This document shows, piece after piece, positions 12,001 to 15,000 of a stretch of 18,695 nt of DNA. The stretch's first letter is position 1. Every line of letters begins with the position of its first letter. The DNA comes from a virus (Duplodnaviria; Heunggongvirae; Uroviricota; Caudoviricetes): positions 1 through 18,695 of IMG/VR virus record IMGVR_UViG_2778261593_000006. One strand, 5' to 3'. The position numbers are program-made.

Positions 12001-15000
12001 AATGTCAGCGGCACACGTACAAGTATTCCCGAAATCTCCTGAGCCACACGTTGCAGAATGAAAGTAAACAATTCCGTTTCCAGCACCAGCCCTTCTTCGC
12101 GGGCATTTTTCAGCTCCTGTGCGTCAGCCTGTGCTTTAGTGAGCCGGTAGCGTTCATAGTCAATGGTGCCGGGTTGTAAATCTGATTCTGCAGCCGCACG
12201 CGAATCTTCCAGTTCTTTGCGGAGCTTTTCATTTTCGATATCTTTTTCCCGCTGCGCATACCACTCAATGGCTTCTGCAGTATTGAACATGGTCTCGATA
12301 CCTTTGCCTCCCCCCGACAAAACTCTCAGCCCCTGACTTTGCCAGCCAGTGATTGTTCTGACATCGCACTCAAAAATTTCCGCCAGTTTCTTTTTGTTAA
12401 CCTTCACGGCACATATTCCTCACAAAAAGAAGAAAGGATCTCAAAACGCTTTTTTCAGCGAAAAATCACCGCTGCCAGATCCTTTCTTTTTTTTAAGAAA
12501 ACTCTATTAAACAACAGGTTAGCCAGAAGAAGAACGGATCTGCTTTTTCCCTGAAAATTTTCATAAATAGCGCGTTTTTGCGCGTCCCCAGACCCCCGGT
12601 ATTTCAGGTTCTGGAAAGGACCCGTGAAAATAGGAATGGTTTGCATATCGGATGCGCATAACATAACACGCATCATGGAAACAACATTCATTCACATTCC
12701 AGCAACATGATTTATTGCTTTCAACGAAACATCGAGTTAGGTTAGGAGCCATTGGCATCCTTTCGCCACCGGCATATCTTTAACGGATTTCCCTGCCGAT
12801 TTTTATTCCTGTGTTGCATTATCGCAACCCCTCACTGAAGGATCACTGTAATGCCTGTTTCTCACGAATCAGGCGAACATGCTGATCGCTAATTTTAATG
12901 CGTGAGTATTGTGGCTTGCAGTCAATCAGTGCGGTGATTAACCTGCCACCTTTAGTTTCCACAAATTTTTTTGCGGATAATCAATCACCACCTCCCTGGG
13001 AGGTGGTTTAGGGATAACAATAAAAACCCCGCAAAGCGGGGTTTTACATGAAATAAACATATTACTCAGTAGTACTGATAAAATCTAATCTATCTAAAGA
13101 CAAGAGAACACTGTCTTTGATGAAATCACTTATTTCATTAAATTTCTTTTCAGAATCTACATAATCGAATGTTTTTCTTCCATATCCATCGACAAATACT
13201 GTCAAATGTTCTTTTTCGATATATATTGAAATATCGCTATTTACCGAAACAAATGCTCTTGGATCATCGTCAATTACTGTCACTAAGGAAAAACGAACCC
13301 CTGCATGAAGCTCTACTATCAGATCTTCTGGCTCACAATAATTTCCACCTTGTGTTATATACACATATTCCTGTTGTTCACCAAGAATATTTATCCAAAA
13401 CTTACCAGAAACATCCAGTGAGGCTTTATAATTATCTATTAACTGCTTCGCTGCCTGCCTGATTGTTTGAACATATTCACTTTGTGTTTTTTTTAAAGCA
13501 TCTCGTTTGGCCTTGATATCATCGTATGTAACCATAATACTGATTCTCTCAGAAAAACATAAACGAGACATAATAATACCTCTATTGACACTCAATTTTA
13601 ATAGTTAGTATGGAATCAGTAATTACGTTGCAATCCCCTTAAAACAGGCATTATCGCAGCCCCTCACACAGAAGGGCTGCTGTAATGCCCGTTACTCAGT
13701 AACAACCACGCCTTCCGGCAATTTCATACCAGCAAATACCGGACAGCCAGGATGGCGATCATCTTCCGTTGCTTCCAGCATTGACTCACCAAACCACTCC
13801 GTTGTGGCGCGACCATCAGCTGCTTTGTAGTGGATCAAGTACTGGTTTTCGCCATCCGCATACTGCGCGCGGGCTTTAACCTCACCCCATTCATCACTGA
13901 TGCGCATCTCCACCAGTTGAGACAACTCAAACTTAAACGGAGCAGCATCAGCACCAATTACAATCGGTTTGTTTTCTGTTGTTTCCATCATCGTCTCCTG
14001 ATATCTAATCCCGCCGCCGCACCGGGCGGTGGCGCACCCTTCATTTTTCAGCAAAATATTCTGCTCTTACAGACGATCAGTTCTGCACACACCGTCGAAC
14101 GCCATCAATAAGCTGACAGACCTGAGACGCGGTATCGAAAAGCTGGCGCGCCTTATCCAGGCTGACGCATCCCACCAATAAAAAAGGCACCAGTATCGCT
14201 ACCAGTGCCCATTTCGCCGCCACTCGCGGTATTCTGTGTGTCCAGTGTTTTCGGCTCATGTCACCACCAACGCACAGCCCAAATCAGAACAGCGACCGCC
14301 ACAAGGCGAATTGCAAAGGCCGCAGCCCTTGTCAAATCAAGGCTCGCGGGAGTTTCCACTTCAATACCTTTCATAATGGACAACCTCAAAAAGAATCTTT
14401 TATACTTTCCCACGAGGATTTTCTCCGTACTCACTACTCACAATTTCCTCTTTGACGTGAAAACTAAAAACCCCGGACTGTTCCAGCAGCCGGGGTTTTG
14501 TTTTTTTATTTACCGCCCTGGGTGCGGCATCTGGCTATTTCATTCCTGGCTTTAGTGTCACCGCGACAGATACAACGAACCGTGTCACCCGCCAGCGTAG
14601 TGATGTAGGCCTCATCCGTTTTTTCCACCGAAATGCATGGTACATTTCCATCCAGGCAATACTCCACCTGGGCAGCAAGGTGAGTGTTGCGCGGGTAAAA
14701 TTCCAGGCGATACATATTCCCCAGAACATGCACTTCTTCAACCTGGCGCCCATCTTCCGTTACCGTGATTTTTTTCAGCGCGTACATACGTACCTCCGTT
14801 CTTTCGTTTTTTGAGCAATAAAAAAGCCGCTCATGGCGGCCCTGTATGTTTTGCAAGCTATCGCTTCAATTGAAAATGTGGGCCGTCTTTAAGCGTCCGC
14901 CAGTCCCCGCCCCATTCGATGACTGTTCCCAGCTCTGCGGCAGCCTGCTTAAATGCCTGCGCGATTTTCTCGTACAGAGGCCAGTCCCATGACACCTGGC

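Follow-up and report, generated by a model that had tools for sequence, protein, structure and literature searches.

How does a phage without spanins get through the outer membrane of its Gram-negative host? The question remains open: about 13% of the surveyed phages of Gram-negative hosts have no identifiable spanin, and the only spanin alternative with an experimental test in the literature searched is the disruptin of phage phiKT (gp28), a small amphipathic helical peptide with which a coliphage that has no spanins disrupts the outer membrane in their stead (10.1101/515445). Here we address this question for a lambdoid Stx2e prophage represented by 18,695 nucleotides of IMG/VR record IMGVR_UViG_2778261593_000006 (positions 1 to 18,695; this whole stretch is referred to as the window), in which all relevant genes lie on the minus strand. 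Beyond its holin and endolysin genes, the window encodes a 37-residue membrane peptide (tm37), a 60-residue prolipoprotein (lipo60) and an acidic protein (acid98). On balance, we favor a reading in which lipo60 is the fourth and terminal gene of the lysis cassette, where it would stand in for Rz/Rz1 and carry out the outer-membrane step without a dedicated inner-membrane partner.

A lipoprotein gene tied to the lysis genes

The open reading frames (ORFs) of tm37 (14261-14374), lipo60 (14077-14259) and acid98 (13692-13988) are all real coding genes under purifying selection and not chance ORFs, as follows from the ratio of nonsynonymous to synonymous polymorphism (pN/pS) for lipo60 and acid98 and from the excess of synonymous changes in tm37. 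Among 81 copies of lipo60, 76 are intact, and pN/pS is 0.20 in frame versus 0.96 and 2.1 off-frame, compared with 0.13 for the endolysin. A candidate gene embedded in the other frames of lipo60 was rejected on the basis of these off-frame values of ~1-2. The lipo60 precursor consists of a long basic n-region (MSRKHWTHRIPRVAAKW), a hydrophobic core and the lipobox LLVG-C31, and a six-frame scan of the 18.7-kb window that allowed every possible start revealed no other lipobox ORF. The mature protein, CVSLDKARQLFDTASQVCQLIDGVRRCVQN, begins with C31-V-S and contains 30 residues when the lipidated cysteine is counted. None of the aligned homologues has an Asp at position +2, and for this reason sorting to the outer membrane is expected. 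The positions that are invariant in the alignment (M1, R3, H5, T7, H8, R9, L19-L23, P25, L27, L28, G30, C31, C48 and C57, with W6 nearly invariant) concentrate in the signal peptide, which is therefore conserved at least as well as the mature part, and the n-region itself is under selection at the protein level (pN/pS 0.16 at pS 0.29). The lipobox cysteine, C48 and C57 are unchanged even in members that are 50% identical. The mature segment is amphipathic (hydrophobic moment 0.55) with a net charge of +1, no proline and a clean a/d heptad formed by A7, L10, A14, V17, I21, V24 and V28. An AlphaFold2 model predicts a single helix spanning residues 12-59 at modest confidence (pLDDT 67) and adds little to this description.

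The family is small. When 1.84 billion representative proteins were searched exhaustively with a profile, only 24 matched. Most of these are small lipoproteins of 44-71 residues with the same format, the remaining, longer matches have the look of fusions, frameshifts or repetitive false positives, and the search turned up no longer protein from which lipo60 might descend. Divergent members retain the lipobox, the short helix and the C-x8-C spacing. The gene is present in ~6.5% of complete E. coli genomes (352/5426), and in related E. coli chromosomes the Prokaryotic Genome Annotation Pipeline (PGAP) labels the products of all three ORFs as hypothetical proteins. Searches of Pfam, NCBIfam, PADLOC and PDB sequences gave no significant match for tm37, lipo60 or acid98, and the PHROGs matches of the three proteins are to families of unknown function only. 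One similarity hints at an origin: in its n-region motif, SRKHWTHRxPR..KW, lipo60 matches a LysC-type o-spanin, that of Shigella phage SfII, with a pairwise E-value of 2e-9, and SfII Rz1 matches phrog_7528 at 1.3e-3. The shared motif suggests that lipo60 descended from an o-spanin gene.

Which genes accompany lipo60? Neighboring genes were mapped in 80 IMG/VR viral-contig loci that encode it, and in every locus with enough upstream flank lipo60 lies on the same strand downstream of holin8, holin3_7 and an endolysin gene of either the M15 or the GH108 type. In the commonest layout, lipo60 starts ~14 nt past the M15 stop codon and tm37 is absent. In the second, a GH108 endolysin gene is followed by the same terminator, one or two small membrane peptides (tm37 or its paralogues) and then lipo60. 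Three divergent homologues, recovered from a metagenome, a sequencing-run assembly and Yersinia kristensenii, also have no tm37, and they overlap the endolysin stop by 4 nt (ATGA) or start 7 nt after it. Because lipo60 abuts or overlaps the endolysin gene in most relatives, divergent members included, the window layout, in which an extra gene, a terminator and tm37 separate endolysin from lipo60, is a derived variant. The three genes are not one conserved unit, and lipo60 is the constant part. No sigma-70-like promoter was found upstream of lipo60 on the coding strand.

A first-pass annotation of the window had proposed that the three genes form a terminator-bounded operon separate from that of the endolysin. 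The ORFs themselves bear scrutiny, as do the translational coupling TGAcATG, in which the TGA stop of tm37 and the ATG of lipo60 are separated by a single C, the lipobox-like LLVGC of the 60-residue product and the AGGAG that lies 6 nt before the second ATG of acid98. The GC-rich hairpin proposed 5' of acid98 (14011-14034) fared differently, its stability being indistinguishable from that of shuffles (z -0.5). Both hairpins taken as operon boundaries are real, but they lie inside a presumably Q-antiterminated lytic transcript and probably do not delimit an operon there. The operon itself dissolves on comparison, since acid98 occurs in ~1/3 of the loci and most relatives are without tm37, and its separation from the endolysin gene is a feature that most relatives do not share.

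The Rz/Rz1 slot and the missing partner

A second question is what else can fill the position of lipo60. At an identical spacing of 1 nt, tm37 precedes either Rz/Rz1 or lipo60. When it follows a Phage_lysozyme R gene, the tm37 variant lies exactly 1 nt upstream of Rz (PF03245) with its embedded Rz1 (PF06085), as in contigs L087-L092, GER2 and vB_EcoS-569R3, and when it follows an M15 gene it lies exactly 1 nt upstream of lipo60 (L093-L098). Since the same tm37 stands 1 nt before Rz/Rz1 elsewhere, lipo60 occupies the Rz/Rz1 slot. The two cassette types have in common the terminator, a 95-nt leader and the tm37 gene, and homology between them stops just past the downstream ATG. A parallel case is provided by phage mEp390, with the order holin8, holin3_7, endolysin, i-spanin, o-spanin and gp53, and a metagenomic locus (L105) with the order holin8, holin3_7, endolysin, lipo60 and a gp53-like gene. 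In GER2 (L086), tm37-Rz/Rz1 is intact and lipo60 is present only as an unannotated pseudogene with three in-frame stops (3501-3668), ~0.8 kb downstream of tm37-Rz/Rz1.

No second spanin accompanies lipo60. A six-frame scan of the window for Rz/Rz1 or a type-II membrane protein recovered nothing except the StxB signal peptide, the 80 loci all lack an Rz/Rz1 homologue within 6 kb, and neither a second lipobox ORF nor a recurrent ORF with an N-terminal transmembrane domain (TMD) occurs within 3.5 kb in 77 loci. Likewise, the complete phiP27 and phiSTEC1575-Stx2k genomes yielded no other spanin; apart from lipo60, their lipoproteins are one of 275 aa with Asp at +2, whose gene is close to that of the integrase, and one of 141 aa encoded between the Q antiterminator gene and stx. 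In a survey of Stx phages the Rz gene family was present in 277 of 279, and the two Stx2e phages of its cluster C have a different holin and endolysin (PMC8136144); we infer that these are the two phages without Rz.

The identification of lipo60 as an o-spanin is not new, since its phiP27 copy already appears in SpaninDB, where Kongari et al. 2018 (PMC6139136) assign a "separated" two-component spanin to phiP27. In that entry the o-spanin is a 51-aa form of lipo60 whose periplasmic part comprises 30 residues and is 83% helical, and it is a singleton in the database. The i-spanin is a 64-aa ORF with a TTG start (L099, 20348-20542), and the pair has the shortest periplasmic length in SpaninDB, 62 residues (PMC6139136). 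This 64-aa ORF is found in phiP27 only, matches no PHROG family and runs antisense to a 90-aa gene (phrog_36812, E 5e-20) that is conserved at 46% identity in another locus. For these reasons the i-spanin call is probably an artefact and lipo60 an orphan, which would amount to a correction of the shortest pair on record. What appears to be new is that the partner probably does not exist.

How lipo60 might act

How would one small lipoprotein complete lysis? The function that we propose comes from genomic position only, and we infer the timing of expression, the localization and the membrane-disrupting activity of lipo60. Under the reading that lipo60 replaces Rz/Rz1, the gene would be transcribed together with the lysis genes on a Q-antiterminated late transcript that reads through the flanking terminators and a hairpin within the gene. 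After export and lipidation at Cys31 the product would reach the outer membrane, and its 29-residue amphipathic heptad helix with the C-x8-C motif would gather on the inner face of that membrane. Holins would release the endolysin, the peptidoglycan would be destroyed and the inner membrane would be pressed against the outer membrane. The lipopeptide could then destabilize the outer membrane, or bridge and fuse both membranes, with no dedicated phage inner-membrane subunit. A more specific proposal, which we put forward only tentatively, is that lipo60 may define a minimal class of single-gene outer-membrane disruptors built from a lipid-anchored coiled-coil or fusogenic helix of ~30 residues and requiring no separate i-spanin. 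In its boldest form, a slowly processed precursor held in the inner membrane by its unusually conserved signal peptide would let one gene supply both ends, and this precursor would pair, through the heptad helix and C48/C57 disulfides, with mature lipo60 anchored in the outer membrane. If true, this would explain the selection acting on the n-region, the lack of a partner gene and the replacement of both Rz and Rz1.

The hairpin within lipo60 is a conserved feature in its own right. Codons 17-27, in the signal-peptide region, form an 11-bp terminator-like stem followed by a U-tract, GGCACUGGUA-GCGA-UACUGGUGCC-UUUUUU (14179-14210), with a folding free energy (dG) of -19 kcal/mol and a z-score of -3.7. 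Its nucleotides are invariant in ~90 loci and in divergent homologues (Yersinia, metagenome), including the rare codons GTA and ATA. Among five lipo60 genes compared, the sole change falls in the loop, and rare single-base stem variants elsewhere preserve the fold. Local pS is 0.10 at the hairpin versus 0.23-0.29 in the rest of the gene. Two of the stem pairs are G-U, and the pairing is therefore specific to the sense RNA. The hairpin may act as a safety device that terminates transcripts lacking Q-modification or translation, although it could also serve as a translational pause site or a processing site.

Several known systems can be compared with lipo60. Like the o-spanins (lambda Rz1 and the P2 LysC/SfII Rz1 type), lipo60 carries an outer-membrane lipoprotein signal, here an N-terminal lipobox without the Lol-avoidance Asp at +2, and it is encoded with a holin and an endolysin at the spanin position of the lysis cassette. 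Its total length of 60 aa equals that of lambda Rz1, conserved periplasmic cysteines are common to both, and its n-region is homologous to that of SfII Rz1. However, no cognate i-spanin is embedded in, overlapping or adjacent to lipo60 in the window, the 77 loci or the two complete genomes scanned; the mature protein of 29-30 aa is too short to span the periplasm, even when the N-tail of tm37 is added; and it has no Pfam match at E<=0.1, so that it belongs to neither the Rz1 (PF06085) nor the LysC (PF23793) family. Mature lipo60 is also all-helical and proline-free, whereas the lambda-type Rz1 of 569R3 is proline-rich with 11 Pro. The unimolecular spanin of T1, gp11, resembles lipo60 in devoting one gene to the outer-membrane step and in its N-terminal outer-membrane lipoprotein anchor. 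T1 gp11 is a beta-rich protein of ~130 aa, whereas mature lipo60 has ~30 aa. We considered lipo60 as a unimolecular spanin and rejected it, as there is no C-terminal TMD; by hydropathy only the signal-peptide segment is hydrophobic and the C-terminus is polar.

The format of lipo60 is that of the colicin lysis proteins (BRP/Kil) and entericidin B, prolipoproteins of ~45-60 aa that give rise to envelope-compromising lipopeptides of ~27-35 aa, and its 60-aa precursor and 30-aa mature form fall within this size range. Its LLVGC lipobox is the same as that of ColE1 Kil, and the conservation of its signal peptide recalls the functional, stable signal peptide of BRP. Homology is nevertheless lacking, because the ColE1 Kil match is limited to the five lipobox residues and there is no match to the Pfam Lysis_col family. 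Lipo60 is moreover encoded in a phage holin-endolysin cassette and the colicin lysis proteins in a colicin operon. Disruptin shares with lipo60 the small amphipathic helix but is a cationic peptide of the antimicrobial type, whereas lipo60 is predicted to be lipid-anchored and signal-peptide-exported with a net charge of only ~+1.

Several points weigh against lipo60 as a partnerless substitute for Rz/Rz1. No experimental work on lipo60 or tm37 was found in the literature searched. BLAST comparison of the mature sequence with Rz, Rz1, other i- and o-spanins, Lpp, ColE1 Kil and EcnB detected nothing past the lipobox. A helix of 29 residues measures ~4 nm and is too short for an intact periplasm, the protein is nearly neutral, unlike cationic disruptin, and it has no evident mechanism of activation or timing. 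Two LT-II prophages, Rac-SA53 and SerU-LTIIb, have the same holins and an endolysin of GH108 size with neither lipo60 nor an annotated spanin, their toxin genes following directly after the endolysin gene; for this reason the function of lipo60 is possibly dispensable, although in Rac-SA53 a fusion of the terS gene is annotated as a deletion. Linkage to the lysis genes could also reflect inheritance of a module and not function, and in the window itself a strong terminator and an extra gene stand between endolysin and lipo60.

What else could lipo60 be? One possibility is an orthodox o-spanin whose partner has escaped recognition, be it tm37 acting as a type-I (N-out) anchor, a holin or the product of a distant gene. 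Such a role would agree with the SpaninDB entry for phiP27, in which lipo60 is a separated o-spanin paired with an i-spanin of 64 aa, with the homology of the signal peptide to that of a LysC-type o-spanin and with the coupling of tm37 to lipo60 in the window; Kongari et al. allow for an i-spanin with a C-terminal TMD, and every intact lipo60 with enough upstream flank accompanies holin8-holin3_7. However, the i-spanin ORF of SpaninDB is confined to phiP27, antisense to the phrog_36812 gene and without a family. tm37 is absent from the commonest lipo60 layouts and from the three divergent homologues, is found before complete Rz/Rz1 pairs as well, and contributes an N-terminal tail of 16 aa that together with lipo60 would provide at most 46 periplasmic residues, compared with the SpaninDB minimum of 62, itself the phiP27 case. 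No type-II TMD ORF recurs near lipo60. The holins are not supported as dedicated partners either, since the same pair serves ordinary spanins in mEp390 and Seifer. We consider an orthodox o-spanin rather unlikely. An accessory role is one we regard as quite unlikely: lipo60 would regulate the timing of lysis or the activity of endolysin or holin from the periplasm, and these phages would have no protein for disruption of the outer membrane. Phages without any spanin do exist, small accessory lysis factors such as Lcc6 and releasin are known, and the LT-II prophages show that the cassette occurs without lipo60. Against this, a lipopeptide sorted to the outer membrane would be badly placed to act on holins in the inner membrane, lipo60 works with two unrelated types of endolysin, and it replaces spanin genes instead of being added to them.

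The remaining alternatives place lipo60 outside lysis altogether. It could be a moron, alone or with tm37 and acid98, encoding an outer-membrane lipoprotein of lysogenic conversion that acts in exclusion like Cor/Llp or in serum resistance like Bor. Exclusion is a typical role of small outer-membrane lipoproteins, terminators flank the unit in the window, and the interval from the lysis genes to terS is a hot spot for cargo (LT-II toxins, a 177-aa ORF and acid98 in relatives). The bor gene of lambda lies in this same interval. A moron is expected to have its own promoter and terminator and an independent position, but lipo60 has no promoter-like site upstream on the coding strand and is never found away from the lysis cassette. 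In most relatives it starts ~14 nt past the endolysin stop or overlaps it, which implies co-expression with lethal lysis genes, and its conserved intragenic hairpin would block transcripts that are not antiterminated. Where Rz/Rz1 is present, in GER2, lipo60 has become a pseudogene. A moron is therefore unlikely in our view. Least probable, and indeed very doubtful, is a small membrane-toxin/immunity pair of tm37 and lipo60. The short, hydrophobic nature of tm37 and the tight TGAcATG coupling are what such a pair would display, but the two genes are distributed independently, with no obligate co-occurrence: the commonest lipo60 layouts do without tm37, in thousands of contigs tm37 is found with Rz/Rz1 in place of lipo60, its paralogues form tandem arrays of up to four between endolysin and Rz, and no toxin matches were obtained with PADLOC or Pfam. 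Among the functions that the first-pass annotation had entertained, the non-canonical spanin equivalent is thus the one that the comparison favors for lipo60, which sits in the Rz/Rz1 slot with no other spanin and a LysC-like signal peptide, and not for the other two ORFs. The absence of Rz/Rz1 on which it had drawn is borne out for the window, and no canonical pair turned up in the two complete phage genomes. The toxin/immunity pair is not supported, given the independent occurrence of its members, nor is the lysogenic-conversion module, given the lack of a detectable promoter and the translational tie to the lysis genes.

The tm37 module, acid98 and the surrounding prophage

If tm37 is not a partner of lipo60, what is it? 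The peptide, MKGIEVETPASLDLTRAAAFAIRLVAVAVLIWAVRWW, has an acidic N-terminal tail and, by hydropathy, a C-terminal hydrophobic helix that ends in RWW; it matches phrog_4493, and the 37-aa ORF is recorded by PGAP in related E. coli genomes as WP_001305859.1. Its relatives are other small single-TMD peptides (PHROGs 4493, 1115, 3246 and 4906), and the family, found on thousands of E. coli contigs, is far commoner than lipo60. In the interval between endolysin and spanin slot of lambdoid phages, one member may stand alone or up to four may follow each other in tandem, with arrays for example at 2510-3073 in vB_EcoS-569R3 (L003) and at 7662-7996 in L062. Chimeras between paralogues also exist (P0148). 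Relative to the version in Rz-type cassettes, tm37 differs by 16-17 synonymous and 4-5 non-synonymous codon changes, the latter being I/V/L exchanges in the helix save for T15I in one comparison. The conserved leader between terminator and tm37 (14375-14461) holds the Shine-Dalgarno sequence GAGG, and its last ~36 nt 5' of the ATG are nearly invariant between the two cassette types; 6 differences in the 45 nt upstream compare with 21 of 37 codons changed in the ORF. Upstream of the leader, an intrinsic terminator with a following U-run (~14462-14505) lies 3' of a 93-aa ORF and 5' of tm37. This hairpin (dG -21.8 kcal/mol, z -3.9 versus shuffles) has an equivalent in Rz-type cassettes that retains pairing though the stem sequence differs.

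Initiation at an in-frame GTG (14413), which has GGAG 9 nt before it, could give a 50-aa isoform of tm37 with the basic extension GKYKRFFLRLSI, and a tm37 paralogue has an ATG at the equivalent spot (MRKYKLILLRLT...). By analogy, this may be a dual-start arrangement like that of holin/antiholin pairs. The LambdaSo Lcc6 and Mu releasin proteins are likewise very small single-TMD phage proteins that are associated with lysis genes and lack family annotation. They share no homology with tm37, however; the TMD of Lcc6 is N-terminal and its gene is distant from the cassette, whereas tm37 has a C-terminal TMD and immediately precedes the spanin slot. tm37 is a small inner-membrane peptide in its own right and is neither dedicated to lipo60 as a partner nor a toxin for it. 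In many lambdoid phages the terminator-leader-peptide module comes before whatever fills the spanin slot, and the role of tm37 is possibly regulatory.

On the other side of lipo60, acid98 is a beta-rich protein of 98 aa from its second ATG or 99 aa from its first, with a net charge of approximately -10, a match to phrog_1935 and a pN/pS of 0.29. Its AlphaFold model is of low confidence (pLDDT 47), and no promoter was found for it. A strong terminator-like hairpin followed by UUUU spans its stop codon (13643-13693; dG -38.6 kcal/mol, z -6.7 versus shuffles). acid98 is unrelated variable cargo and lies outside the lysis unit. Between it and the terminase small subunit gene is a 177-aa ORF (13062-13595; phrog_5091) with two tandem terminator-like hairpins 3' of it (12987-13045); a homologue of this ORF is located upstream of holin8 in other loci, which gives it the appearance of mobile cargo. 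A 182-aa ORF (11859-12407) occupies the position of the terminase small subunit gene of relatives, with head genes next to it.

The upstream part of the window contains tRNA-Met and tRNA-Arg (17640-17893), a 321-aa ORF (16590-17555) and an 87-aa ORF (16314-16577), the latter two corresponding in size and position to stxA2e and stxB2e of phiP27. The cassette itself begins with a multi-TMD holin of the Phage_holin_8 family (15503-15895; PF16931), followed by a Phage_holin_3_7 protein with three TMDs by hydropathy (15238-15513; PF05449) and an M15-family peptidase endolysin (14858-15235; PF13539, phrog_465). The gene between endolysin and terminator encodes a 93-aa Cys-rich hypothetical protein (14506-14787; phrog_33497) and is present in only ~3 of 80 loci, phiSTEC1575-Stx2k being among the carriers. 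An Rfam scan of positions 12400-16400 gave nothing close to threshold. The same type of lysis cassette is associated with varied toxin cargo among prophages (the window, L001, L102, L103 and L107): stx2e (in the window), stx2k, subtilase AB5 and a pertussis-like toxin are located upstream of it and LT-IIa/b downstream. In phiSTEC1575-Stx2k (L100), the holin8 cassette is directly preceded by a partial second lysis cassette (19848-20412), which consists of a class II holin and a 114-aa ORF and resembles a relic of cassette replacement.

These features make lipo60 a tractable case for the question of how spanin-less phages cross the outer membrane. The system belongs to E. coli, the complete genomes of phiP27 and phiSTEC1575-Stx2k carry the gene, and cassettes that carry Rz/Rz1 behind the same upstream module provide natural "swap" controls. 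The cassette is directly downstream of stx2e, and previous work revealed that deletion of a 130-aa holin gene at this position abolishes enrofloxacin-induced release of Stx2e in porcine Shiga toxin-producing E. coli (PMC12571312). The deletion primer used in that study contains window sequence 15920-15935, and the lysis cassette itself is active by this evidence. Since the cassette adjoins stx2e and its holin controls antibiotic-induced toxin release, the outer-membrane step is likely to influence the escape of Stx2e from the cell.

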